A stretch of DNA of 64,000 bases, taken from assembly GCA_043815885.1 (NCBI GenBank), contig JBDRIL010000029.1, forward strand, positions 3,249 to 67,248, written 5' to 3'. Below, piece by piece: positions 935-64,000 of this stretch. Every line of letters starts with the position of its first letter. The first letter of the stretch is position 1. Below the pieces are notes generated by a model. It saw nothing but the letters and a program-made list of their open reading frames with translations, had not been told where the DNA came from and ran no database searches. This DNA is from an archaeon. GTDB taxonomy: Archaea; Iainarchaeota; Iainarchaeia; Iainarchaeales; 1-14-0-10-31-34. The position numbers were made by a program, and so were the translations under genes.

Positions 935-2704
935 GTGTGCGGAATCATTGGTTTTGTTGGAAAACAGAGGGCAGACAGAATTATCTTTAATTCCCTGAAG
1001 AAGTTAGAGTACAGAGGATATGATTCTTGGGGGATGGCTTTTCCAGGAAAGGAAAGCATTGTTTCAGTGAAAAGAGTCGGAGCAATCTCTTCCCTCCCAA
1101 AAAAAACCAGTTTCAGCAATTCCTTCATTGGATTAGGGCATACGAGATGGGCAACACACGGAGGAGTGGAAGAAAAAAATGCTCACCCATTATTTTCCTG
1201 TGATAAAAGGATTGCCGTAGTGCATAACGGGATAATAGAGAATTTTTCTTCACTAAAAAAAGAATTAATCAAAAAAGGCCACAGGTTCAGGAGTGAAACT
1301 GATTCAGAGGTCATTGCACATTTAATTGAAGAGAGAGTTAAGAGAGGAGATGGACTGTTAAAGGCAGTTGCTTCCTCCTGCAGGAAACTGAATGGAAGTT
1401 ATGCTTTCCTGGTTTTTTCCCTGGATGAACCGGAGAAAATTATTGCAGTGAGGAATGAAAGTCCTTTGATTTTAGGGATCTCCAGAAAAGGAATCTTTGC
1501 TTCCTCTGATCAACTTCCAATTCTTTCCTTTACAAATAAATTTGTTTTTCTGGATGACGGAGAGATGGCTCTCCTTGAAAAAAATTCATTCAAGTGCTTT
1601 GCTCTTCCTTCCTTAAAACCAATAAAAAAACCAATTAATTCAATCACTTCAACCATCACTACCTCCGGAAAAAAGAAGTACAGTTACTTCATGATGAAGG
1701 AGATAATGGAACAACCCACAGTAATGAAGGATGTGCTGAGGCAGGAGAAAAAGAATTTTGATTCAATAAAGAAATTACTTGCAAAAAGAAGAATATTTTT
1801 TGTTGCAAACGGCACTTCATTCAATGCAGCAATGATTGGAAGAGATTACTTCAACAGAATTGCTGGAAAGAATTCAGAAGTAATCAATGCATCCGAATTC
1901 TGTTATGAGGCAGACTTCCTTCCAAAAAATTCAGTTTTAATTGCCATCTCCCAGAGCGGGGAAACAGCTGATGTGCTTGATGCAGTGAGGGAAGCAAAAA
2001 AGAAAAAACTTCCAGTTATTTCTGTTCTGAATATTTTTGGTTCAACCCTTGACAGAATGAGTGATAAAAGAATTTACCTGAATTGCGGGGAAGAAATTGG
2101 AGTAGCTTCAACCAAAGCCTTTACTTCTCAAGTGGCAATTCTTTATCTTTTGGCTAATGCATTGAATGGAAGATTCAATGAAGGATTGAAGGAATTAAGG
2201 GAGATTCCTAAAAAAATGAAGAAAACAATTCAATTGAATCATTCTAAAGTAATTAAATTAAGCAAGAAGATAAAGAACAAAAATGACGTTTACTTTATTG
2301 CCCGTTCAATTAATTTCCCTATTGCATTAGAGGGAGCATTAAAGTTAAAGGAAATCTCTTACCTTCATGCTGAAGCATTTTATGCAGGAGAACTGAAACA
2401 CGGGACACTTTCATTGATTGAATCAGCTACACCAGTAATAGCAATTGCTCCAAGCGATTCATGCATGAATGACACAATCAGAAACGCAATTGAAGCAAAG
2501 AGCAGAGGCGCAATGGTTGTTGGAGTGAGTGACAAAAAAAATAATTTATTTGATTTACAGCTATTGCTTCCAAAAACCTCTTCCCTTCTTTATCCATTGA
2601 TTGCAGTAGTTCCATTACAGTTGCTTTCCTATTACACTGCGATTTCTCTGAAGAGAAATCCGGATAAGCCAAGGAATCTGGCAAAGAGCGTGACAGTAAA
2701 ATGA
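935..2704 (+). CDS. glmS: glutamine--fructose-6-phosphate aminotransferase (isomerising)
   Basis: GTG start then Cys2 nucleophile (MCGIIGFVG), class-II amidotransferase N-terminus, two SIS domains, C-terminal KSVTVK typical of GlmS. Confidence 0.9.
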   Translation: MCGIIGFVGKQRADRIIFNSLKKLEYRGYDSWGMAFPGKESIVSVKRVGAISSLPKKTSFSNSFIGLGHTRWATHGGVEEKNAHPLFSCDKRIAVVHNGIIENFSSLKKELIKKGHRFRSETDSEVIAHLIEERVKRGDGLLKAVASSCRKLNGSYAFLVFSLDEPEKIIAVRNESPLILGISRKGIFASSDQLPILSFTNKFVFLDDGEMALLEKNSFKCFALPSLKPIKKPINSITSTITTSGKKKYSYFMMKEIMEQPTVMKDVLRQEKKNFDSIKKLLAKRRIFFVANGTSFNAAMIGRDYFNRIAGKNSEVINASEFCYEADFLPKNSVLIAISQSGETADVLDAVREAKKKKLPVISVLNIFGSTLDRMSDKRIYLNCGEEIGVASTKAFTSQVAILYLLANALNGRFNEGLKELREIPKKMKKTIQLNHSKVIKLSKKIKNKNDVYFIARSINFPIALEGALKLKEISYLHAEAFYAGELKHGTLSLIESATPVIAIAPSDSCMNDTIRNAIEAKSRGAMVVGVSDKKNNLFDLQLLLPKTSSLLYPLIAVVPLQLLSYYTAISLKRNPDKPRNLAKSVTVK

Positions 2705-3168
2705 TTTTAAGAAAAGCAAGAAAAAGCGATGCAAAAGGAATTGCAGAAGTAATGATTGAATTCTATAATATTTCTTCTATTAAGGAAGGAGTGAATGCAT
2801 TCAGGGAAGAAACATGTAGGGGGCATAATTTTATTGTAGCGATTGAAGGAAAAAAAGTGGTTGGATTTACTTCCTGGCTGGCGCATGGTTTGGCTAAACA
2901 CGGTCTGGCTGAATTGGACAGGATTGCTGTATTGGAGGAACTGAGAGGAAAAGGAACTGGAAAAAAACTATTCAATTTTCTGGAGAAGGAAGCAAAGGAA
3001 TACTACAAAAAAAGAAATTCAAGATTAAGAAAATTATTCATTTTAACGCATGCCTCAAATACAAAAGCTCAGGCATTTTATTCCTCGCTTGGATTAAAGC
3101 ATGAAACAACATTAAAGAATCATTATTATGCAGGGGAAGATGAATTCGTTTTCAGTAAATTTTTTTAA
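2701..3168 (+). CDS. GNAT-family N-acetyltransferase
   Basis: 155 aa; acetyl-CoA binding motif region RGKGTGKKLF; start overlaps glmS stop (ATGA). Confidence 0.7.
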   Translation: MILRKARKSDAKGIAEVMIEFYNISSIKEGVNAFREETCRGHNFIVAIEGKKVVGFTSWLAHGLAKHGLAELDRIAVLEELRGKGTGKKLFNFLEKEAKEYYKKRNSRLRKLFILTHASNTKAQAFYSSLGLKHETTLKNHYYAGEDEFVFSKFF

Positions 3169-3182
3169 TGAAGGTTTTTTGA

Positions 3183-4880
3183 ATGAAGATAAAGGCAGTT
3201 ATTTTTGATTTGGATGACACTCTTTTTGACTGCAGTGGAATGCTTGTAGAGAATGCAAGAAAACGCTCAGTAAAGGCAATGGTTAAAGCAGGACTGAATC
3301 TCGGCGAAAAGGAATTAATGCAGGAACAAAAAAAAGTATTGCAGGAAGATCCAAAATGTGATGTATTTGAATTAATTTTAAGGAACGCCAAGTTGAGTGA
3401 AAGAGAAAGAAAGAGGATTAAGAAGGCTGCACTGAAGGCATATAATTCAGATGTAGTTGAAAAAATAAAGCTCTTTCCAGATGTAATGCCTACTTTAAGG
3501 GAATTAAAGAAGAAAAAAATCAAGCTGGTAATAATTACCTCCGGCTTATACAGAAGACAGATGAAGAAAGTCAGGTTATTGAAGCTGAATAAATTAATGG
3601 ATTTAGTTTTAGTGCATGATATAGAGAAAGATCCCTCATTTTATCAGGAGCATTTTCTTGATGCACTAAAAAAATTCAATTTAAAGTCCTCTGAAGTGGC
3701 AGTGACTGGAGACAGGCTTTATGCAGAGATAAAGACTGCCAACAAGCTAGGAATGCATTCAATTCAGTTCATGCATGGAAGATTCAGGAAACTTAAACCA
3801 GAGAATGAATTAGAGAAGGCTGACTATAAAATCAGAAAGATTTCTGAAGTATTAAATATAATCAAAAAAATTGAGTCTCTTCCAACAAAAAAGGAATTTG
3901 AGGAACTGAAAGTAGTGGCAATTGGAGGAGGTACTGGACTGCCAAATGTATTGTTTGGATTAAAGAAATTTACTGCTAACCTTACTGCAATAGTTACTGT
4001 AACTGATTCAGGCAGAAGTTCGGGGAGACTGAGAAGAGAACTGAATGTATTGCCTCCAGGAGACATAAGGAATTGTTTGGTAGCGTTAAGTGATTCAGAA
4101 AAATTAATGAAGGACTTGTTCCAGTACAGGTTTTTTGGAGAGAATGAATTGAATGGCCACAGTTTTGGAAATTTATTTATTGCTGCTTTGGCTAAATTAA
4201 CTGGTTCTTTCGAAAAAGGAATTGAAAAGGCAAGCAATATCCTTGCAATAAAGGGAAGAGTGCTTCCTTCAACACTGGAAGACGTGTATCTTTGCGCTGA
4301 ATTAAAGAACGGAGAAATGATTGAAAGAGAGGAAGTAATCAGAAGCAAAGCCCTTCCAATAAAAAAGGTCTTCCTAAAACCATCAAATGCAAAACCACTG
4401 AATAAAGCAGTGAAAGCAATAATGGACGCAGATGCAATAGTTATTGGGCCGGGTTCATTGTTTACCTCCATTATCCCGAATCTCTTGGTTAATGGAATTC
4501 CTGAAGCAATAAAGAAATCCAAGGCAAAAAAGATTTATGTATCCAATATAGTTACCCAGCCAGACCAAACAAAAAACTTTACAGTCTCTGAACACGTAAA
4601 AACAATAGAAGAATATTTAGGAAAGAGAGTAATTGATTTTGTTATAATTAACAATATGCCCCCTCCAAAAAATTTATTGAAGAAATACAGGGAAGAAGAT
4701 TCAGGTTTAGTGAAGGCCAACAAAAAGGAATTAAAGAAAATCAATGCAAAAATAATTGAAGAAAACCTGATTGAAAAAATAAAGGAAGAAAAAAAACCCC
4801 TTCTATGGGAAAAAAAGTATTTATTAAGGCACGATCCATTCAAACTGGCTGAATGCATTCTGAGAACAGTGAAAGAATAG
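3183..4880 (+). CDS. HAD-superfamily hydrolase fused to YvcK/CofD-like (UPF0052, gluconeogenesis factor / 2-phospho-L-lactate transferase family) domain
   Basis: N-terminus has HAD motif I (VIFDLDDTLF). C-terminal half has VVAIGGGTGLPNVLFGLKKF...VTVTDSGRSSGRLRRELNVLPPGDIRNCLVAL, typical of the YvcK/CofD family. Confidence 0.7.
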   Translation: MKIKAVIFDLDDTLFDCSGMLVENARKRSVKAMVKAGLNLGEKELMQEQKKVLQEDPKCDVFELILRNAKLSERERKRIKKAALKAYNSDVVEKIKLFPDVMPTLRELKKKKIKLVIITSGLYRRQMKKVRLLKLNKLMDLVLVHDIEKDPSFYQEHFLDALKKFNLKSSEVAVTGDRLYAEIKTANKLGMHSIQFMHGRFRKLKPENELEKADYKIRKISEVLNIIKKIESLPTKKEFEELKVVAIGGGTGLPNVLFGLKKFTANLTAIVTVTDSGRSSGRLRRELNVLPPGDIRNCLVALSDSEKLMKDLFQYRFFGENELNGHSFGNLFIAALAKLTGSFEKGIEKASNILAIKGRVLPSTLEDVYLCAELKNGEMIEREEVIRSKALPIKKVFLKPSNAKPLNKAVKAIMDADAIVIGPGSLFTSIIPNLLVNGIPEAIKKSKAKKIYVSNIVTQPDQTKNFTVSEHVKTIEEYLGKRVIDFVIINNMPPPKNLLKKYREEDSGLVKANKKELKKINAKIIEENLIEKIKEEKKPLLWEKKYLLRHDPFKLAECILRTVKE

Positions 4881-4882
4881 AA

Positions 4883-6100
4883 TTATTTTTTTGGCTTCAT
4901 TACGATTAAAGTGTAGTTTTTTTCTTTCAGGAAGTTCTTTGCTGTTTCTTGTACTTGTTTTGAGGTAACGGAATGAATTCTTTTAAGGAAGTCTTTTGTG
5001 TACTTTACCTTGTTTCTCTTGTAATTAATCAGGTTTAAGGCTAAATCAAAATTGTTTTCTTCTGTGAGAAGCAGTTTTCCTTCAATGTATTGTTTTGCTT
5101 TATTCAATTCTTCTTTGGTTAGTTTTTTTTCTCTTAAGGCCTTTATTTCTTTTTCAATTAATTCCTTTACTAAAGGAATCTTTTCTTTTCTTGCCCCAAC
5201 ATACACGGCAAAGTAACCGAAGTAATTTCCTGCCTCTAAATGTGATTGTACTGCATAAGCAAGACCTCTCTTCTCCCTTATCTCCTGCATCAGCCTGCTA
5301 CTTAACCCACCCCCTAAATGAGCATTAATTACTTCCATTATATAGTGTTCTTTTTTAGTGGAAGGAGTGACCTGAAAACCATAAATTAAATGCGCCTGGC
5401 TTAATTCCCTTTTAATTAATTTGTTTCTTTCAGTTATTTTTTCTTTCCTGAATTCCTTTACATCTCTTGGTTTCTTTTTTTTCGTGGAAAATGATTCCTC
5501 AATTTTTTTCTTTACTTTCAATGGATTAATGTTTCCTACAACTGAAACAATTATGTTTGAAGGAGTGTAAAATTCATTAAAGTAATCAATGATGTTCTTT
5601 CTGCTGATTCCTTTCACTGTTTTCTTTGTTCCAATAATGCTCTTCATTTTATTGTCCTTAAAGCAGAGCTGCTGGAATAAATCAAAGAGGTAATTCGGAA
5701 CATTGTCCTTTATCTGGCTTATCTCTCTTAGAACAATCTTTTTCTCTAATTTAAGGTTTTTTTCCTTGAACAGGGAATTATTCAGGCAGTCCTGCAATAC
5801 GTCCAGTCCTTTACCAAAGTGCTTGTCCTGGACTTCAACAAAGAAACAAGTCATTTCATTGGAGGTGAATGCATTAATCTTTCCTCCAATTTTGTCAATC
5901 TCTTCAGCCAGTTCTTTCTTGTTTCTTTTCTTGGTTCCAGTGAAAGCCATGTGTTCAATTAAGTGAGCTATTCCTGAATGTTTTGTTTTCTCAAAAATTG
6001 AACCAAAATTAATTGAAATAAGGATTGCAACAGAATTACTGTCTTTTCTTTCCTTTACAAGCAGATTCAATCCATTACTCAAAACGAATTCTTTGATCAT
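4883..6100 (-). CDS. M16-family zinc metallopeptidase (insulinase-like)
   Basis: Inverted zinc-binding motif HLIEH (GIAHLIEHMAFTGT); two-domain M16 architecture; 405 aa. Confidence 0.8.
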   Translation of the reverse strand: MIKEFVLSNGLNLLVKERKDSNSVAILISINFGSIFEKTKHSGIAHLIEHMAFTGTKKRNKKELAEEIDKIGGKINAFTSNEMTCFFVEVQDKHFGKGLDVLQDCLNNSLFKEKNLKLEKKIVLREISQIKDNVPNYLFDLFQQLCFKDNKMKSIIGTKKTVKGISRKNIIDYFNEFYTPSNIIVSVVGNINPLKVKKKIEESFSTKKKKPRDVKEFRKEKITERNKLIKRELSQAHLIYGFQVTPSTKKEHYIMEVINAHLGGGLSSRLMQEIREKRGLAYAVQSHLEAGNYFGYFAVYVGARKEKIPLVKELIEKEIKALREKKLTKEELNKAKQYIEGKLLLTEENNFDLALNLINYKRNKVKYTKDFLKRIHSVTSKQVQETAKNFLKEKNYTLIVMKPKK

Positions 6101-6106
6101 AGAAAT

Positions 6107-9100
6107 TCACTGCACTACCTTGCCTGTAATTGCATCAATTCTCGCTTTTCTTTCCTTTCCATTTTCTTCCAGTGAAACGTAATAGAACGGCCTGTAAACC
6201 AGACTCACTTTTTTCACTATCACTGTCTTCCACATTTTCTGGAGAGACTTAATTACTTTTTCTTCAGAGAAATTAGCTTCGACTATTGAGACATTCTTTA
6301 ATTCAACCAAAGGCAATTCATTCAATGAATCAATCAATGAATGCCTTGAGTCAGGAGGAAGTTCTATCTCTCTGTTAAGGAAATAGGAGACCTTTCCCTC
6401 AGAACTAACTCTATCAACCAAACCCTTTTCAGTTAAATTGCCTAGAACTTTTTTTATTCTTGTTTCAGAGTAATTCTCTTCCTCCAGTTTTTCCTCCATT
6501 CCTTTCCTTTTAATTAAGCCAGCAAATACCTCTAACTGCTCTTCATCCAATTCCATTACCTTATTGAAGCCTCTTGATTCAATGAATTCATCATTCTTTA
6601 CGTGAATGAATTCCCCTGTAATGGCATTAATGAAACACGTAGTTGCAATGAATTCCTTGCTTTTGTTGAAGTCATTGAATGAAATCTTATAGACTGGCTC
6701 AAAAATAAGTTGAAGTTGCTTTACCTGCTCTTCCTTTCCAACCAACCCAAACCTTTTCCTTTTCCTTACCTTATTAACGATTTTCTTTGCTTCCTCTTCC
6801 TTTAATCTTAATGGAAATGAAAGAATGCTTTCCCTCTCTACCTTCTTTTCTTCCTGCTCTTTTATTCTTTCCTCTGCTTTTTCCTGTGCTTCCTTTATTA
6901 CTTCCTCTTTTTCCTTTAATTTTTCTGCAAGAACGACTCTGTCTGGTTCAATTACTGCCTTTCTTTCCTCCAATAAATCCAGTACAGAGGAAAGCATTGC
7001 CTTTGCCTTGTACTTGCTGTTCAATGAATTAATCAATTGATTGATTTTATCCATTCCTATTTCTCCATCCCTTCCTAATTCCCTGAACGCAATTTCCATT
7101 GCAAGGTTTTCCACCTGTTCCTTGCTCAGGCTTTTAACCAAAGAAATGGTTTCTGCATCCCTTCCCTCGTGCTGCGACATTCTTGGGCGGATACTCATCA
7201 CAAACGCTCTGCTTGTTTCCTCTCTCCTGTCACCAGTGAGAGCATAACCTATTGGAAGGCTTCTAATGAAATTGCTTTTCTTGTATTGGTGGGGAATGAT
7301 TGTAGGAATTCTCTTGTAAATAGCCTTTATGTCGTCATCAAAAACCAGTTTATGAGTCAAAAGAATATCCAATTGAGACAACACCCTTGTATCAATTGCT
7401 GATGGCTGCTGTGTAGCAAAAACTATACTGCAACCAGGCCTTCTTCCCTGCTTAACATACTCCACCAACGCATTTGTGGCAGGAGTATTTACATTTCCTG
7501 AAGGAATTAAGGTGTGGGCTTCATCAATAAACATCCAGGTAGGAGGAATATCTGTTTCAAGCAATGCATTCATTGAAGTAGCCTTCATTTTATTCGCTGA
7601 TTCTCTTCTAGTGGAAAGCTTTCTCGCTGAAAGAATTCTCCTTGCAAGAATTCCAATAACCAATGCAGTAACATTTGCTTCAAGAAAACTTGTATCCAAT
7701 ACAGTCAACTGGTTTTCTCTGGAGAGTTCCCCCAAAGGAGTTCCCTTTTCATCAAAGATCCCCCAGGACTTCGCTGCCTCAAACCTGCTGACTAACGCCC
7801 TAATGGAATCCTGTTTGTAGCCTCTTTCCCTGCTATTCAATTCTTCATCTGTCTCCAGACAGTTTATCATGCCATCCAGAGAAAAACCCTGCTTGTTTGC
7901 CTTAACGTATTTTCCTTCAATTGTCTTGTATCCATGCTCTACTTTTTTAATTACCTTATCCAAAAGCAAGCCGCTTGGACCAAATCTCTCCATTCCAAAA
8001 GTCAAACACCAGTCCTCTGAGGTAAGCAGTGAAGGCTGAATTGAAAAGGTTGCATCATAAGTGTTTTTTGGAGTTTCATTCTTCATTCCTGCTGGAATGA
8101 ATACCTTAAGGTTATCAAGGCCTTGAGGTTCTAACCCCCACTCAATCAATGCACTTAATTCCTTTTCTTCCTTGTTTGCATACTTCATGCTCCAGAACAC
8201 TCCAATAGGATCAATTACTACTATTCCAACATTGCTGTTTTTCAGTGCCAGTTCCTCTGCAATCACTCCAAGAACGTATGAATTATGAACAATTATATCG
8301 TTTGCAACAAAATTATAGTATTCTGGAACAGAAATATCATATACATCTTCTCCAGGAATTTCTTTTAACTCAGTTACCTCATCCCAAAAAATATCTGATT
8401 CTGCTATCATCTGTACTCCTTTATTCCCTTCAATCTGAGCCATTCTCAGTAACTTTTTTCTGGAAGGCGCGTAAGTTAAGGAACTATGGACGTAGTTTGG
8501 ATTATAACCCATTGCTCTCGAAGCAGCCTTACAATTTTTTGGTCTATAAATGCCCCAGATTTCTTTCGGAATAGTGTCTACATTTGGATTTCTTGAAACC
8601 TCAAGCATGTCTTTTATTGCATTTTCCTGTTTTAGTTCTTTTACCCCAAAAAAACCGATTTCCTGAATGAATCTGATTACACTTTCAGATGAAATAACTA
8701 ATTCAAAGGAATTGAATTTTTTCTCGTTACATTTGACTTTTTTGAACCTAAGCCTAGAGAGTATCCCAAATCTAATCAAAAGATTCTGCACTTGCCTTAT
8801 CATTTTATCTGAAGAACTAGAATAAGAAACCTGCCAATTATTTTTTCTTCTACTTATCGGATGAATACTGCCGTCACAACTGAAAAGCCTGTTCAGGAAT
8901 AATGCCAGCTGTTCTTTAGGAAGTTTTAATACTTCTTCTGGAATAACTTTCTCCTTTGTTAGCTTTCCATATAATCCAATGCTTTCAAACCATTTTGCCA
9001 GAGAACTCTTTTGCGCGACAATAAACCCTTTGCTTGTAAATTGCCCTTTTTTGTTTCTAACAACATTTGTTAAATCAATTGGTTTCTTTTTTTGTGCAAC

Positions 9101-58093: not shown

Positions 58094-58807
58094 TTATGTC
58101 CTGCTTTTCTTAAGAATATAAACAGCAAAATGAGGGTATTTTGTTTCGGAATACCATTTGAAAGGTTCTTTTCCTGTAGCCAAAGGCTTATGTAATTCCA
58201 GTATTTCAAAACCTGCTTCAGAAAATATCTCCCTGTAATCTTTTTCTGTCCAATAGTAGTCATAAAAAATTATGTCTGTTCCCCTAAACCCAATTTTAAC
58301 CTGCATCCCGCTTTTTATATCTTTATTTTCAAGATAACTGTAAATAAATGAAGCACAGTCATGCCTATACATATTCTCTGCATCAGTCACTATTATGATT
58401 ATTCCTTCTTTCTTCAGAACCCTGTTTAACTCAAAAAATATTTCTTTCATCTTTTCTTTGGATGGAATTTCCATTAACACCAAAGAAACCAATATTAAGT
58501 CAAGTGAAGAATCAGTGCTGGGAATTCTATTATTTTTAATAAGATGATATTCTCCTTCAAGATCAAACTTTTTAGCTTCGGTTATCATATCCTGGCTTGC
58601 ATCAATGCCGATTGTCTCCAAACCCAGTTTTTTTAAGAATCTGGTGGAACGCCCGCCTCCACAGCCAAAATCAAGAGCCTTTCTACCTTTAACATATTTT
58701 TCAATGAATCCAGGGATATCACGATACGCTAAATAAAATGTGTCCTTAATATCTAGCTTGGAATATTCCTTTGCAAACCTTTGATATTCATGCGATGCCA
58801 TAATCAT
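58094..58807 (-). CDS. class I SAM-dependent methyltransferase
   Basis: LDFGCGGGRSTRFL motif I; DASQDMI motif. Confidence 0.8.
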   Translation of the reverse strand: MIMASHEYQRFAKEYSKLDIKDTFYLAYRDIPGFIEKYVKGRKALDFGCGGGRSTRFLKKLGLETIGIDASQDMITEAKKFDLEGEYHLIKNNRIPSTDSSLDLILVSLVLMEIPSKEKMKEIFFELNRVLKKEGIIIIVTDAENMYRHDCASFIYSYLENKDIKSGMQVKIGFRGTDIIFYDYYWTEKDYREIFSEAGFEILELHKPLATGKEPFKWYSETKYPHFAVYILKKSRT

Positions 58808-58876
58808 TTATTGTCCTTTTTTTCATTTAAACCTTTTCTTTAAGGCACACTAAAACTGACTGATCCACGACAATAT

Positions 58877-59042
58877 CCAAAAATGGGCTAACGGACACAG
58901 GCTTTACCATAACTTCATTAAAGAAAATTCAACAATCGGAATGACGCCTTCAGAGAAAGCAGGAATTGAATTAAACTTAAACAGAAATAAGTGGTTGAGT
59001 TTATTAGAACAAAGCTTAAACTCCACACATAAACAAGAATAA
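58877..59042 (+). pseudogene. fragment of IS6-like transposase (C-terminal ~50 codons), remnant second copy
   Basis: Translates as ANGHRLYHNFIKENSTIGMTPSEKAGIELNLNRNKWLSLLEQSLN. It is ~90% nt identical to the reverse complement of 60852-61010 and in the opposite orientation to the intact copy. Confidence 0.75.
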
Positions 59043-59084
59043 TCAGTTTTTGACCGTATTATTTTTTATATTTGAAAGACTTTC

Positions 59085-59588
59085 TTGTTAATGGAAGGTG
59101 ATAAATTAATGCCGGGAGGAAAAAGAACTGTAAAACGAAGCTCAGGATTATATAAACCCACTACCGTCAGAGGTGTAAAAGTAGGTAAACCAGAGAGCGG
59201 GACTCTTCATACATTCAGACCAAAGGAAATTTTGGAAAGAAAGAAATTTAACTATTTAGCGGATTTTCGTAAGCTTAAGGATTTTATTGTTCTTGGTAAA
59301 CGTCAACTGCCTCTTAAGACAGGTGAATTCGCATTCATAAACACTAATACAGGAAATTTTGTTGGAAAGGGAAGGAAAAATAAGTTTGAATTCTTGGCTA
59401 CCCATAAAGTTGGAAGGAAATGGGAAAGCTATGAAAAAATGCCAGAACCAAAAATAATTCCTATTTCCGAAATTAAAAGTGGATACTCTATTGCAATAGC
59501 AGGACGCAAAGAAAAACGAAAAACAACAACAAAAAGGGAAAAGAAATCGATAGAGCCAGAGCATGGTGGCGGAATGAGAAACTTTTAA
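59085..59588 (+). CDS. hypothetical basic protein (accessory region)
   Basis: 167 aa, K/R-rich, no family recognised. Confidence 0.35.
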   Translation: MLMEGDKLMPGGKRTVKRSSGLYKPTTVRGVKVGKPESGTLHTFRPKEILERKKFNYLADFRKLKDFIVLGKRQLPLKTGEFAFINTNTGNFVGKGRKNKFEFLATHKVGRKWESYEKMPEPKIIPISEIKSGYSIAIAGRKEKRKTTTKREKKSIEPEHGGGMRNF

Positions 59589-59635
59589 TTTTTTCACCTC
59601 CTTTCGATTTTTTTCTTTTAAAACTGACGAATACG

Positions 59636-59800
59636 ACAGGGTTTTTTGCCTGACGAATTTTCGACAGAGCCCTGAAAGCGGCATTGTCGTAAAGGGGGTT
59701 GATTTGATTGGAAAAAAGTAAAGTGTCGAATTCGGTTGGTATTGAAAGGAAAGGGGGTGAAAAAAACGAAAAAATTAATAAGGAGCTTTCCCTTTTAGAT
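59636..59800. repeat. conserved ~165-nt leader module (GAATACGACAGRGCCCTGAAAGCGGCATTGTCGTARRGGGGTTGATTT...GTCGAATTCGGTTGGTA.TGAAAG...CGAAAAAATTAATAAGGA), copy 1
   Basis: Copy 2 is at 63335-63490. Each copy precedes a divergent small TM peptide and may encode a shared N-terminal peptide SNSVG(I/N)ERKGGE(K)NEKINKE. Confidence 0.7.
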
Positions 59801-59968
59801 AAGGTTTTGGGGTTTGAGCTTATGAAAAAGGGAGCAGTTAATTTAATTGTAGTTTTTGTGCTACTTTATGTTTTCTTTGTGTATGTCATGAAGATAAACT
59901 TAGTTATTTCATATGTTGTGGCAATAGCAATCGCATTAATTTTAGCTTACTCGAATGATTGGCTATGA
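59708..59968 (+). CDS. small membrane protein (conserved leader region + divergent TM core), paralogue of 63384-63653
   Basis: TTG start in the track ORF; an alternative internal ATG gives a 48-aa TM peptide MKKGAVNLIVVFVLLYVFFVYVM... Confidence 0.45.
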   Translation: MEKSKVSNSVGIERKGGEKNEKINKELSLLDKVLGFELMKKGAVNLIVVFVLLYVFFVYVMKINLVISYVVAIAIALILAYSNDWL

Positions 59969-60231
59969 CTATTAAAGAATTAGAAAAAAAAGTTGCAGAG
60001 CTGGAAATCAAGGTAGGTTTTGATAACCGATTGAAAGGGATAGAAAATAAACTTTTAGATTTGGACAAAAAATTTAGTGAACATAAAAAAAGTTGGATGG
60101 AAAAAGTCACATTAAAAAGTTTAGTAGATTGGACTTCAAAAAATGTAAGGGATTTATCAATCCAAATAATAATAACAATAATAATAGCAATAATAGTTTT
60201 CTTGATATCTATTTCTTCAATAAAAATTTGA
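59959..60231 (+). CDS. small coiled-coil protein with C-terminal TM helix
   Basis: 90 aa; overlaps the previous ORF's stop. Confidence 0.4.
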   Translation: MAMTIKELEKKVAELEIKVGFDNRLKGIENKLLDLDKKFSEHKKSWMEKVTLKSLVDWTSKNVRDLSIQIIITIIIAIIVFLISISSIKI

Positions 60232-60244
60232 AAAAAAACTGATT

Positions 60245-60832
60245 TTATTTTACTGATTGTTCCAACAAGTATTCAAGTAAACCTATCTTCTTGAATATCT
60301 CATGAATCACATCAACGTATTCGTGTCGCACTTGTTTCTGGATTTCCACTTGTTTGTTAAATCTTTCTCCTTTCATAAAAGGGTTTTTCATTAATTTATG
60401 CTCATTATAAGTTGTATAACTTGCAATAATGTCAGCAAGTTTTTTTCCGTTTTCTTCTATTTTCCTAATTTCCCCGATAATTAATCTCTTTTTTTCAAAA
60501 TTATTTTTTCCTTTAATGCCTCTTAAAAAATAAGGTATTTGCTGTTTGTCTTTCAGTGCCTTAATGGTGCTTAAATCCTTTAAAACTTTATTAGGTTTAG
60601 ATAAATGTCCCCACACAAATTCAATCATTATTCTGTATCCTTCTTTGTTTAAGAATATTGGATTTTTTTTATCGTGGTATTTGATTGAAAGCCCTCTGTA
60701 TTTTCTTTCAAAACTTCTGCAAGTTTTAATATTTTTTGGAAGCATGAATTGTTTTTGTAGAAGGGCTTTTTTGTGTTTCTGAAAGCTTTGATATGAACGT
60801 AATCTTTTCAATCTTTGTTTTAATTTTTTCAT
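60245..60832 (-). CDS. hypothetical basic protein
   Basis: 195 aa; abuts the transposase gene. Confidence 0.35.
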   Translation of the reverse strand: MKKLKQRLKRLRSYQSFQKHKKALLQKQFMLPKNIKTCRSFERKYRGLSIKYHDKKNPIFLNKEGYRIMIEFVWGHLSKPNKVLKDLSTIKALKDKQQIPYFLRGIKGKNNFEKKRLIIGEIRKIEENGKKLADIIASYTTYNEHKLMKNPFMKGERFNKQVEIQKQVRHEYVDVIHEIFKKIGLLEYLLEQSVK

Positions 60833-60851
60833 TTAATTAATTATTGTTGTT

Positions 60852-61973
60852 TTATTGATTTAAGCTTTTCTCTAATAGGCTTAACCACTTATTTCTTTCA
60901 AGCTTTAAATCAATCCCTGCTTTCTCTGAAGGCGTCATTCCGATTGTTGAATTTCTTTTAATGAAGTTATGGTATAATCTGTGTCCGTTAGCCCATTCTT
61001 GTGTTGTCTTGTTTGACTTGAATCCTCTTCGCACTTTATCGAATTCCCTGAATTCATTATGATACCTTTCTACAAGATTGTTGTTTATTAAGTGCCTTCT
61101 TCCAACAATACTGATATGCTTTGTTCTCTTTGACTTGGTTCTGAATTCTCTCTTGATTGCTTTTGGATAGCTTCCAAGAGAATCAGTAATAATGAATTTA
61201 GGTTCTTCTGCTTTAGGATTGTTTTCTTTTACTTCAATGAAATGCTCTTGAGCATCCTTAATTTTTCTTCCTTCTGTGATTGTTGAAGCTAAGACAAATC
61301 TTGTTTTATGGTCTATTGAATTCCAAGCATAAACCCATTTTCCTTTGGATTTAACTAATTGTTCATCAGTATGAATTTGTCCGCTTAATTCAGGAGTGAA
61401 TTTCTTAGTGTATTCATCCATTTTTGCAGTGAACTTATTAATCCATCTTCGGATTGTATCAAAATGAATTCTGATGTTATAGAATTGGTAAACAGTATCA
61501 GAAATATCTCTCAATGATAAGCCTTTGAAGTATAAATCCATTGTTAAAGTAATGATTTTTGGGTTTGCTTTAACTCTTTTCAATGGCTCTAAAACAAATA
61601 GTTTTTTACAGGCTCTGCATTGCCATCTTTGTTTTATTCCTGCACTTGTCTTTCTTTTCCCGTATTTAACTATTAGGTCTGAATAACAGTGAGGGCATTC
61701 CTGTTTATTTGCATTGAATTCTTCCTCTATATTGAAGTCATCTAATTCTGCCTTGTTTTTCATTTTTAAGTAAAATTTGATTGAGTGAATGTGTTTGCAT
61801 TCAGTTTTCCTGTATTTGAAGTCAGGGCATTCACAACTCCATAGGTTAGCGTTCTGCACTTTATATTTTCCATTTCCAGATTGAGAAGGAATAATCCATT
61901 CATTCTCATTAACCATTAAAGGAGTATCGCCTTTAGACAAAATCGCTAAACCCCTAATTTCTCTTTCATTCAT
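60852..61973 (-). CDS. IS6-family-like DDE transposase with N-terminal SWIM-type zinc finger
   Basis: CECPDFKYRKTECKHIHS (CxCxnCxH) zinc finger. DDE region resembles IS6/IS26 (WVYAWNSIDHKTRF..., FIITDSLGSYPKAI, RRHLINNNLVERYHNEFRE, NGHRLYHNFIKRNSTIG). Confidence 0.75.
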   Translation of the reverse strand: MNEREIRGLAILSKGDTPLMVNENEWIIPSQSGNGKYKVQNANLWSCECPDFKYRKTECKHIHSIKFYLKMKNKAELDDFNIEEEFNANKQECPHCYSDLIVKYGKRKTSAGIKQRWQCRACKKLFVLEPLKRVKANPKIITLTMDLYFKGLSLRDISDTVYQFYNIRIHFDTIRRWINKFTAKMDEYTKKFTPELSGQIHTDEQLVKSKGKWVYAWNSIDHKTRFVLASTITEGRKIKDAQEHFIEVKENNPKAEEPKFIITDSLGSYPKAIKREFRTKSKRTKHISIVGRRHLINNNLVERYHNEFREFDKVRRGFKSNKTTQEWANGHRLYHNFIKRNSTIGMTPSEKAGIDLKLERNKWLSLLEKSLNQ

Positions 61974-62034
61974 AATAAATCACCTTATACCAATTTCGGT
62001 ATATACAATATAGGGCATAACCTTTTTAAAGGTT

Positions 62035-62053
62035 TCGGTATATTGGTATATTT
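62035..62053. repeat. 19-nt direct repeat TTTCGGTATATTGGTATAT (second exact copy 62199-62217; partial copy 61996-62006)
   Basis: Brackets the RHH ORF, immediately upstream of the transposase start. Confidence 0.7.
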
Positions 62054-62054
62054 T

Positions 62055-62189
62055 ATGTCTGAAAAAGCTAAAACAAGTTTGACATTAGATAAAGACTTAT
62101 GGAAGAAATTCAAAGTAAAGTGTGTTCAAGGGGAAAAGTCATATACTGCTGTAATCGAAGGACTTATCAAAGAGTGGCTTAAAAAATAG
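62055..62189 (+). CDS. 44-aa ribbon-helix-helix (CopG/Arc-like) protein
   Basis: Read by hand: MSEKAKTSLTLDKDLWKKFKVKCVQGEKSYTAVIEGLIKEWLKK. Matches the RHH pattern (beta strand SLTLDKDLWKKF, then two helices). Flanked by 19-nt direct repeats. Confidence 0.5.
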   Translation: MSEKAKTSLTLDKDLWKKFKVKCVQGEKSYTAVIEGLIKEWLKK

Positions 62190-62249
62190 CTAAATTTCGG
62201 TATATTGGTATATGTTTATTTATAAAGGTTTTTATCAATAGATTATGTT

Positions 62250-62519
62250 ATGGCAAAAGAAATTATTTTTGATGAATTAAAAAAAGAAGAAGCAATTCTA
62301 CTTCTCAAGGCATTTGATTATAAATTGGATAAAGAAGGACATATTTTAAGACCTTCTGGAAGCAAAATACCTTCAGAATTACACCCTAATAAATATCTTA
62401 CTTTAAAGGATTCAGCGTTGGTTCCTGCTGGTTCAATGGACGTTATTGATGCTAATCCAATATCTATTTCAAAATTTATTAGAGAACGGACGGTAGAAAA
62501 AGATGTCTGTTCCCGTTGA
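62250..62519 (+). CDS. hypothetical protein
   Basis: 89 aa; overlaps the next ORF. Confidence 0.35.
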   Translation: MAKEIIFDELKKEEAILLLKAFDYKLDKEGHILRPSGSKIPSELHPNKYLTLKDSALVPAGSMDVIDANPISISKFIRERTVEKDVCSR

Positions 62520-63267
62520 GGAGCTAATAAAACAAGTTTCAAGTTTGCCTTTGAAAGAGGCACTAGCCTTATTAGTAGTAAATAAGGTTTTGGAGTTTTC
62601 TGGGAAAGGGTATTCTGCTTTAAAGCAAATCATAATTGATAAATATAATGAAGGAAAATATGCGTTTGTTCCAAATAAAGAAGAAGCACAGAAATTAACG
62701 GAATTTGAGACAAGTTCTACTTACAAACAAATAAAGATTCTTGTTCCATCTTATCGCTATATTGATATTATTAGAACAGGCTTGTTAATTGACTTTTACC
62801 ATTGCAGAAATTTAAATGGAGATAAAGAAAGAGTTTTTAAAATTAAACAAAGTATAGCAAACACGCCAAATGGCAAAACCTTATTAAAAATTACGAACCT
62901 TCCTTCAACCCCTTTTTTTAGTATCATTCTTAAGTATTTATATGATTTAAAAATTAATAATAATTATTCAGAGAAACAACTTGAAGAAACATTTGATGAA
63001 ACCATTTTACAATGGAAAGAATCCTCAAAATTCGTTGAAAATAAACATTCTGTGCAATCTATTATTAATTTTTGCACAAAGCAAATAGAATCAGATAAAT
63101 CACCAATATTTCTTCTGGCAATGCGACAAGCTGTAACAAAGTTGAACAAAGCTATTGAGACATTAGAAAGAAAAAACTTTTTTAAAGCCAACAATTATAT
63201 AAAAAGAATTATAATTTTAGAAGAAGGGAATCATCCAAGAGTAGAGGTTATGCTGATTAAAGAGTAA
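62503..63267 (+). CDS. hypothetical protein
   Basis: 254 aa; no family recognised. Confidence 0.4.
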   Translation: MSVPVEELIKQVSSLPLKEALALLVVNKVLEFSGKGYSALKQIIIDKYNEGKYAFVPNKEEAQKLTEFETSSTYKQIKILVPSYRYIDIIRTGLLIDFYHCRNLNGDKERVFKIKQSIANTPNGKTLLKITNLPSTPFFSIILKYLYDLKINNNYSEKQLEETFDETILQWKESSKFVENKHSVQSIINFCTKQIESDKSPIFLLAMRQAVTKLNKAIETLERKNFFKANNYIKRIIILEEGNHPRVEVMLIKE

Positions 63268-63334
63268 CAAACAGCCCCCGAAGTAAGCGTGAATAACATA
63301 TGCTAAAATCAACCGCATCCGACTTAATTTTCAT

Positions 63335-63490
63335 CAACCGAGAATACGACAAAGCCCTGAAAGCGGCATTGTCGTAGGAGGGGTTGATTTTGAGTGAAAT
63401 TAATGGTTTGTCGAATTCGGTTGGTAATGAAAGAAAAGGAGGTGAAAACGAAAAAATTAATAAGGAAAACGCCCTTATTAATCGTGTTAG
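63335..63490. repeat. conserved leader module, copy 2
   Basis: Matches 59636-59800 at ~85% identity. Confidence 0.7.
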
Positions 63491-63653
63491 GGAGTTTAAT
63501 ATGGGCTGGTTTAATGTCCCCAAAAGTAAGTGGAGAACCATTGGAGTAGTTTTTTTTGTTATTGGAGCTTTTCTAATATTTTTTACTGATTACAGACAAT
63601 ACGGAGTAATAATAGCTATTTTAGGGGCAATCATTAATTTAGTTAATGGATGA
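63384..63653 (+). CDS. small membrane protein, paralogue of 59708-59968
   Basis: Shares the N-terminal LSNSVGNERKGGENEKINKE; a divergent TM core begins at the internal ATG (MGWFNVPKSKWRTIGVVFFVIGAFLIFF...). Confidence 0.45.
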   Translation: MILSEINGLSNSVGNERKGGENEKINKENALINRVREFNMGWFNVPKSKWRTIGVVFFVIGAFLIFFTDYRQYGVIIAILGAIINLVNG

Positions 63654-63967
63654 TTGATATGACTGAACAGCTACCACAACAAATGTTTGAAGCTGGTAAG
63701 TTAAAACACAAAAGACTTATTTCAACAATGCAATTATTTATTGGTTTTTTAACTGCAATAGAAATTGGGGTGTTAACTTTGTTTCTACAAAAAGAGGAAT
63801 TATTTTTATCAAAAGCAAATTTATTTTATTTAATATATTCGATTTTTTTAGCAATACTGCTTAGTTTTATAGGTCTTAGCTCGATTTTAGTAAATTTAGA
63901 AAAAACACTTGGGTGGAAACCAGAATTGGAAGAAAAAACTAAGAAAAAGAAATGGACTTGGTTCTAA
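63650..63967 (+). CDS. small membrane protein (two TM helices)
   Basis: 105 aa; overlaps the previous ORF's stop. Confidence 0.4.
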   Translation: MIDMTEQLPQQMFEAGKLKHKRLISTMQLFIGFLTAIEIGVLTLFLQKEELFLSKANLFYLIYSIFLAILLSFIGLSSILVNLEKTLGWKPELEEKTKKKKWTWF

Positions 63968-64000
63968 TTTTTTGACTTCGTAGTTAAAGTTTATTACTCA

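Follow-up and report, generated by a model that had tools for sequence, protein, structure and literature searches.

The 3' part of the window, by which we mean the whole 64,000-nucleotide (nt) stretch of archaeal DNA that was analysed, contains an intact gene for a 373-amino-acid (aa) transposase of IS6 type (60852-61973, minus strand), a ribbon-helix-helix (RHH) gene transcribed divergently from it, five further open reading frames (ORFs) and, in the opposite orientation, a short fragment of a second transposase gene. An original prediction, made from the sequence alone, had regarded the gene and the fragment as possible arms of a composite transposon carrying 59085-60832, and the 3' end of the window as mobile or accessory DNA. 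The latter view holds: four clear IS6-type ends and one degenerate end are found there, and the GC content drops to 0.27-0.33 between 59.6 and 63.4 kb, from about 0.37 in the other parts (36% for the whole window). Several IS6-type elements are thus arrayed at this end, and among them positions 59680-63356 very probably constitute one complete IS6-family cargo transposon of a DPANN-type archaeon. This unit of 3,677 base pairs (bp), referred to below as element Y, has its transposase on the minus strand, is bounded by inward-facing IS6-type inverted repeats (IRs) with identical 8-bp flanks, and encodes the transposase, the RHH protein and the five ORFs, considered here as cargo.

The transposase matches the Pfam model PF13610 (DDE_Tnp_IS240; E=9.6e-20), and its domain make-up bears out the earlier description of an IS6-like enzyme with a SWIM finger. 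From the N terminus it comprises a SWIM finger (aa ~37-62), a zinc ribbon (aa 93-122), a helix-turn-helix (HTH) region (aa ~138-190) and a DDE core (D203, D264, E302, with R309). The SWIM motif reads C47-x-C49-x9-C59-x-H61; the protein itself scores 18.0 bits with the Pfam SWIM model (PF04434), below the cut-off of 19.6, while 38 of 46 aligned relatives match the model (best E=5e-8). Across the 46-sequence alignment, the SWIM ligands C47, C49, C59 and H61, the ligands of the second finger (C93, C96, C119 and C122; CxxC...CxxC), and D203, D264 and E302 plus R309 are all invariant. Weak Pfam matches to Zn_ribbon_IS1595 and InsA were also recorded. An AlphaFold2 model (mean predicted local distance difference test score, 82.9) shows a confident small N-terminal beta-beta-alpha domain (aa 19-74), followed by a beta-hairpin ribbon, a helical DNA-binding region and an RNase-H-like core. 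The closest solved fold is that of the IS256-family transposase ISCth4 (Foldseek E=4e-8; profile E=4e-5), with retroviral integrases next, and no IS6 transposase was among the ranked fold and profile matches in the PDB. Membership of the IS256/Mutator group was rejected, the score with PF00872 being 14.6 bits against a cut-off of 21 and the likeness to ISCth4 one of fold only.

An identical protein is held by NCBI under the title "MAG: IS6 family transposase [archaeon]", and the nearest relatives come from metagenome-assembled genomes (MAGs) of Diapherotrites/Iainarchaeum, Woesearchaeota, Micrarchaeota and Aenigmarchaeota. A profile search of 1.84 billion cluster representatives (E<=1e-30) returned 726 clusters at 50% identity, and the family is present at no fewer than 478 metagenome loci. 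Beside the SWIM-bearing form of ~370-400 aa, many relatives of ~280-295 aa begin at the zinc ribbon (profile position ~90), the SWIM-less form among these clusters being ~285 aa long; the SWIM domain is thus an additional module that only some of the family members have.

The ends of element Y lie 1.2 kb and 1.4 kb distant from the transposase gene. Closer to the gene, a search for IRs (60800-60900 against 61960-62700) yielded no credible pair, a search for duplications beside the gene found no shared 8-mer, and a generic IR scan of 57 loci, from the end of the small neighbouring gene to the transposase stop codon, gave no significant signal; one candidate pair (60808-60831 and 62060-62082; 20/24) was rejected, as it falls on the lysine-rich 5' ends of two ORFs that read outwards. 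The clue was provided by a direct repeat of 117 nt (59662-59778 and 63347-63463; 78% identical), taken together with the ends of a related insertion sequence (IS) group. Both copies of the repeat contain the exact 23-mer GCCCTGAAAGCGGCATTGTCGTA, which includes the octamer CTGAAAGC, and each parses as a left-pointing tip (CGACAGAGCC at the first junction, CGACAAAGCC at the second), the 8 bp CTGAAAGC, and a right-pointing tip, GGCATTGTCGTA. Upstream of the tips, the two copies are unrelated to each other.

The right IR (IRR), downstream of the transposase, occupies 59680-59703 on the plus strand (GGCATTGTCGTAAAGGGGGTTGAT, with the exact 12-mer motif), and the left IR (IRL) occupies 63333-63356 on the minus strand (GGCTTTGTCGTATTCTCGGTTGAT, read on that strand). 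These IRs are ~24 bp long, imperfect and GG-tipped, with the terminal sequences GGCATTGTCGTA and GGCTTTGTCGTA, and agree at 18 of 24 positions. The octamer CTGAAAGC flanks them at 59672-59679 (beside IRR) and 63357-63364 (beside IRL), both on the plus strand and identical at 8/8 positions, and doubles as the spacer to the ends of two neighbouring elements, X and Z, respectively. Terminal inverted repeats and an 8-bp target duplication, the two features by which the original prediction had proposed to delimit the element, can thus both be defined. In the whole window, the 12-mer GGCWTTGTCGTA occurs without mismatch only at 59680 (plus), 63345-63356 (minus) and 63365 (plus), and with two mismatches at 59660-59671 (minus); the two remaining matches, each with two mismatches, are what chance predicts. 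A second TGTCG...GGTTG site lies ~44 nt inward of the IRR, and the subterminal block GGTTGATGAAA of the IRL is common to the IRLs of two relatives, L036 and L071 (L numbers denote metagenome loci).

The same features recur throughout the family. Our sample consisted of 80 metagenome loci encoding relatives plus a few more, about 60 of them non-redundant, and the end test, which combined a plus-strand motif upstream with a minus-strand motif downstream of the transposase, gave 144 candidate pairs. Perfect 8-bp flanking direct repeats were found in ten loci and a 7/8 repeat in L001, as against 0/144 in a control with the 8-mers shifted by 10 nt. The duplication-validated elements measure 2.0-5.4 kb; all 24 validated ends have T6, G7 and T8, 21-22 of them have a GG tip, and their consensus is GGtTCTGTCGcA. 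Cargo is located on both sides of the transposase in 10 of 12 validated elements. L033 and L034 share their transposase (91% at the nucleotide level) and their IRs, while the duplication, the length and the cargo differ, so that such units have moved and their cargo turns over. Of 57 non-redundant loci, 51 have a small hydrophilic DNA-binding gene upstream of the transposase, which is divergent in 46; its product is of RHH, AbrB/MazE, zinc-ribbon or DUF2080 type, the last annotated as "putative transposon-encoded protein".

The validated loci for which the cargo was typed are L001 (3186-7219), L003 (629-4894), L014 (133-5555), L034 (560-5754), L036 (1768-5653), L062 (1419-4885) and L071 (1721-5998). 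N6/N4 methylases are carried by L014, L034, L036, L062 and L071, and in two cases the methylase is fused to an Mrr nuclease domain; L003 carries a C5 methylase and a Fic protein, L001 a GmrSD/HNH nuclease, and several validated loci carry proteases. None of the cargo listed here is shared with element Y. As to insertion sites, L001 (flanks 3156-3185 and 7220-7250) and L014 (flanks 103-132 and 5556-5585) are inserted at homologous sites with promoter-like flanks, tttaaaaaNNtatttaaaaagggg. GAAAA occurs within several duplications of the family (GGAAAACT, GGGAAAAG, GGAAAAGC, AGAAAAAG and CTGAAAGC), which hints at a target preference.

Inside element Y, the RHH gene (62055-62189, plus strand, divergent from the transposase gene) encodes a 44-aa Arc/CopG-like protein that matches PF21432 (E=3e-7) and Arc-like PHROGs. 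According to the ORF calls, the cargo consists of two small membrane-protein ORFs (59708/59823-59968 and 59959-60231, plus strand), a 195-aa ORF (60245-60832, minus strand) that starts directly after the transposase module, and ORFs of 89 aa and 254 aa (62250-63267, plus strand). For these five ORFs we found no Pfam match reaching the family cut-off (sub-threshold matches only), no PHROG match, and no relatives in the other loci, where the RHH gene is the exception. The divergent genes are separated by an 81-bp intergenic region (61974-62054), in which GGTATA palindromes occur, containing a palindrome, TATACCAATTTCGGTATA, which adjoins the transposase start, and a box, TTTCGGTATATTGGTATAT, which may represent operators and promoters. 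The 22-nt box, TTTCGGTATATTGGTATAT(T/G)TT, stands on both sides of the RHH gene (61975-62054 and 62195-62223; 95%), its second copy at 62195-62216, and a 20-nt inverted repeat frames the same gene; boxes, palindrome and inverted repeat are candidate operator sites. Inside the right ends of Y (59692-59815) and of its neighbour Z (63377-63497), ~130 nt are conserved in blocks (TGTCGAATTCGGTTGGTA, AAAGGrGGTG and AAAACGAAAAAATTAATAAGGA) upstream of the small membrane ORFs, and these blocks could combine subterminal transposase sites with a promoter and a ribosome-binding site. The long ORF calls from 59708 and 63384 probably start too early. No tRNA was found near the region.

We then considered the inverted fragment, previously described as a decayed second copy of the transposase gene. 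Its partial and inverted nature is confirmed beyond chance: a repeat search delineated arms of 143 nt with 87% complementarity (58878-59020 and 60859-61001), and tblastn showed 87.5% aa identity to the last 48 codons of the Y transposase (58878-59021; E=1.7e-22) and no other copy of the transposase in the window. The coding similarity stops at AGCTTAAA, as had been stated, beyond which a weaker similarity (17/23 with one 4-nt gap) continues for ~20 nt after the stop codon and reaches ~60833 and ~59043. Third codon positions account for 11 of the 19 nucleotide differences and second positions for a single one, the ratio of nonsynonymous to synonymous substitution (dN/dS) is about 0.2 with a dS of about 0.45, and the frame remains open into a 7-codon tail; the gene therefore diverged while functional, before its truncation, and the same values exclude a duplicate of the resident gene that decayed in place.

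The 166-bp fragment is what remains of another, related element, X, a truncated neighbour of Y. The remnant (58878-59043, plus strand) consists of 48 homologous codons with a 7-codon tail and stop of its own; everything upstream of codon ~325 is missing, and the fragment has neither a transposase body nor an outer end. X retains a cargo ORF of 167 aa (59085-59588, plus strand; ORF call, no Pfam or PHROG assignment) and a two-site right end (59632-59671, minus strand; GGCTCTGTCGAAAATTCGTCAG with the subterminal block TGTCGTATTCGTCAG) whose tip at 59671 faces Y across 8 bp. L014 and L001, whose transposases are the nearest relatives, have an identical TGTCGTATTCGTCAG block in their IRRs. At the opposite side of X lies a degenerate end-like sequence, W (58844-58878, minus strand; GGATATTGTCGTGGATCAGTCAGTTTTAG); the window has just two exact TGTCG-N7-GTCAG matches, and W is one of them. 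The tip of W lies within 1 nt of the point at which the X gene is cut, so that the truncation looks like the product of an IS-mediated insertion or adjacent deletion. No other boundary of this putative element was found, and an indel-tolerant end-motif search, together with a sensitive blastn comparison of L017-type units with the window, gave mostly chance matches. A gene for an S-adenosylmethionine-dependent methyltransferase (58094-58807) is situated just inside the W end.

At the opposite side of Y, element Z (63365-64000, plus strand) opens with an IRR-type end, GGCATTGTCGTAGGAGGGGTTGAT, and continues past the window edge; ~150 nt of it are 78% identical to the IRR region of Y, followed by two small membrane ORFs. 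The two resulting junctions (59660-59691 and 63345-63376, both with the octamer CTGAAAGC) each place facing tips 8 nt apart, and a scan of all loci for a left-pointing tip followed by a right-pointing tip within 0-20 nt revealed that this spacing occurs nine times among 21 pairs, any other spacing occurring at most twice. Besides the window, six loci contain such junctions, namely L033 (3357/3366 and 3478/3487), L036 (2407/2416), L052 (852/861), L065 (2010/2019), L068 (2989/2998) and L088 (3263/3272). Between its two junctions, L033 has a 113-bp mini-element with IR-like tips. Elements of this family tend to sit end-to-end at a distance of one duplication length. The simplest reading is that an incoming element would insert into the 8 bp flanking a resident end and copy the octamer to its own far side, tandem duplication being the alternative.

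It is possible, though we put this forward tentatively and think it rather doubtful, that the family targets the 8 bp against a resident tip, giving rise to head-to-tail or tail-to-tail cargo arrays with a spacing of one duplication length. New copies directly beside a resident end of the same family are known from the targeted conservative insertion of IS26 and from the abutted ends of (IS30)2 and (IS21)2; the tips of the Y family differ in standing exactly 8 bp apart, and the neighbours may be different members in either orientation. If true, this would be a mode of target choice unlike the random insertion of IS6 elements and unlike the targeted conservative route by which IS26 inserts without a gap, the N terminus with its SWIM finger or zinc ribbon could mediate the recognition of ends, and the arrays would grow as islands in which DPANN genomes gather restriction-modification and other cargo.

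When compared with known transposons, element Y combines features of several groups. Association of a SWIM finger with a DDE transposase is known from MuDR of the MULE/Mutator group; relative to MULE/MuDR and IS256, Y is distinguished by the N-terminal position of its SWIM finger and by IRs of IS6 type. With IS26 and IS257 it shares the PF13610 DDE core with K/R 7 residues on, the GG start, the G at position 7, the TGT core and the 8-bp duplication, and the IS26 IRL (GGCACTGTTGCAAA, confirmed in an IS26 record) matches the IRR of Y at 11 of 14 positions. The Y transposase differs from that of IS26 in its low identity (~25%) and in a 140-aa N-terminal extension containing the SWIM finger and the zinc ribbon, and Y differs from IS26 and IS257 in its longer IRs with two sites each, its additional divergent DNA-binding gene and its archaeal (DPANN) host. 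Among annotated plasmids, the closest named relatives are IS26 and ISCpe7 (33% identity for ISCpe7 over aa 141-364, covering the HTH, DDE and C-terminal parts; E=1e-28). ISCpe7 belongs to the long clostridial clade h/VII, which has in common with Y an N-terminal CxxC zinc-finger extension and the 8-bp duplication. ISCpe7 has two InsA-type ribbons and no SWIM finger, and is a simple bacterial IS of 1.27 kb lacking cargo and a partner gene.

The end signature reported for the IS6 family, with GG tips, G at position 7 and a cTGTt motif (PMC6807381, PMC7986276), is present in the ends of Y and in the 24 validated ends, and Y has the 8-bp target duplication of that family. Identity to classical members falls short of the usual level of at least ~40% (~25% with IS26 and 33% with ISCpe7), and the dimensions are also different: classical IS6 elements are single-ORF units of ~0.7-0.9 kb (~0.8 kb for IS26 and IS257), whereas Y and its relatives, with their 3,677 bp and 2.0-5.4 kb, belong to a branch of 2-5 kb units with cargo. 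The sole passenger-carrying IS6 member in a 2021 review is ISDsp3 (PMC7986276), with one passenger gene in 1.46 kb; members of the Y family carry several genes of variable content on both sides of the transposase. Our literature search brought up no paper in which a SWIM-bearing IS6-like family or IS6 cargo transposons of DPANN archaea are described, and experimental transposition data are lacking for archaeal or long IS6-like elements (PMC6807381). Y represents a DPANN-archaeal branch of IS6 that combines a SWIM-bearing transposase with a small partner gene for a DNA-binding protein and with cargo that varies and frequently consists of genes for DNA methyltransferases or restriction.

From these features the following course of events may be envisaged. 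The transposase would recognise the two imperfect ~24-bp IRs, each with a terminal and a subterminal TGTCG...GGTTG site, probably through its N-terminal SWIM finger, zinc ribbon and HTH region, and the DDE centre (D203, D264 and E302) would join the ends to the target with an 8-bp stagger, leaving CTGAAAGC on both sides. We infer that transposition proceeds replicatively, through cointegrate formation. The RHH protein, transcribed divergently from the shared control region, probably represses the transposase promoter, and the five unrelated ORFs would travel as cargo. The simplest history is that the 8 bp adjoining the tip of a resident element served as the insertion site for Y, and perhaps earlier for Z. 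The right end of X abuts Y tail-to-tail across the 8-bp target, and Z begins 8 bp past the other end of Y.

Several observations weigh against taking 59680-63356 as one complete transposon. The 8-bp flank sits within the longer 117-nt direct repeat, so that an origin of the octamer by duplication of that segment is possible, and the octamer is fairly common in the window (11 copies against 4.4 expected from shuffles). The subterminal part of the Y IRs, of GGTTGAT type, resembles that of the distant L036 and L071 and is unlike that of the closest transposase relatives L001 and L014, which is of CGTCAG type. The similarity between X and Y stops ~20 nt past the transposase stop codon, where a possible relic end fits a smaller ancestral unit. 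Neither a second copy of Y at another site nor an empty site was found. A search of contigs for the exact transposase protein gave no match, a scan of genome contigs for further Y-like copies returned L001 only, and no relative was found among the IMG/VR viral contigs. DNA similarity between the window and L001 (71% identical) is restricted to the coding region. P0099 was present on 24 contigs in an identical context throughout. An independent metagenome contig, Ga0180007_10109103 (L013), corresponds to 62773-60935 of the window with 99.9% identity, from the same organism and in the same context; it breaks at 60935, within the segment that is repeated in the X fragment, as is typical of assembly breaks at repeats.

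Of the other explanations, the one that survives best is a nested or hybrid origin, in which a compact IS consisting of the RHH gene and the transposase (about 60833-62230) lies inside an older, possibly non-autonomous element with the outer IRs; the outer element might have been moved in trans, or the compact unit might have lost its own ends and adopted the outer ones. The end of the X/Y similarity falls at an IR-like sequence, ATTATTGTTG...TTTATTGATTT, and the segment concerned (60833-60862, minus strand; ATTATTGTTGTTTTATTGATTT), which overlaps the transposase stop codon, is possibly the relic of an older right end. Working right ends do occur at this distance, the IRR tip lying 20 nt after the transposase stop in L031 and 23 nt after it in L076. 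Moreover, in the L017 group (L017, L019, L020, L022, L023, L031 and L061; about 2690-4163 in locus coordinates) a 1.47-kb module, in which a small zinc-ribbon gene accompanies the transposase gene and a right end located 20 nt downstream of the transposase stop codon, is 86-95% conserved across at least seven different left contexts; in L031 the 8-bp duplication pairs the right end of the module with an IR 2.3 kb further left, so that the conserved module lies within larger, variable transposons. Together with the resemblance of the Y subterminal blocks to distant relatives, these features hint that cargo may have been captured when distal ends replaced proximal ones. We nevertheless consider such an origin unlikely for Y: the compact boundaries have neither intact GG-tipped IRs nor an 8-bp duplication, the terminal 12-mers of Y match those of L001 and L014, and cargo within duplication-validated ends is the rule in this family.

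It is very improbable that the segments 59662-59778 and 63347-63463 are duplicated regulatory or terminator palindromes of paralogous operons for small membrane proteins, with the octamer as part of the duplication. They are indeed direct repeats, each precedes two small membrane ORFs, and the two tips plus spacer can form a hairpin. Against this, the motif pair with its 8-bp duplications is found in 11 unrelated loci, always around a transposase of the family, and it fits the IS6 IR signature; the sequences upstream of the tips are unrelated, as expected for ends of different elements, and no Rfam family matched at the repeats (E<=1).

Least credible of all is the composite transposon of the original prediction, since, although two homologous transposase segments in inverted orientation do bracket 59085-60832, this interval is cut by the target at 59672-59679 and holds two facing ends (59660-59691), and thus represents two tails, of X and of Y, and not one cargo, while one of the supposed arms is a 166-bp stump without an outer end, no duplication surrounds the proposed structure, the two copies are 13% diverged under purifying selection, and the arms stand in opposite orientation, whereas in functional IS6 compound transposons the copies are always direct repeats, which the resolution of cointegrates needs (PMC7986276).

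Overall, the interpretation of positions 59680-63356 as one complete cargo transposon bears on IS classification, on DPANN genome dynamics and on possible end-adjacent targeting. For annotation, the mobile unit is of 3.7 kb and not the ~1.2-kb transposase gene. Harmer and Hall placed archaeal and "long" transposases outside the IS6 family, as their ends and proteins looked different (PMC6807381); the large archaeal branch described above shares with classical IS6 elements both the end signature and the 8-bp duplication, although its protein identity to IS26 is only ~25%. The recurrent junctions of two ends across 8 bp point to a target preference that can be tested. The IS6 family has been viewed as essentially cargo-free, with ISDsp3 as the exception (PMC7986276), while elements of the archaeal branch routinely carry 1-4 kb of genes, including those for DNA methyltransferases, Mrr-fused methylases, a GmrSD-type nuclease, Fic and proteases, and are therefore a vehicle for gene flow, probably including that of defence genes, in the reduced genomes of DPANN archaea.

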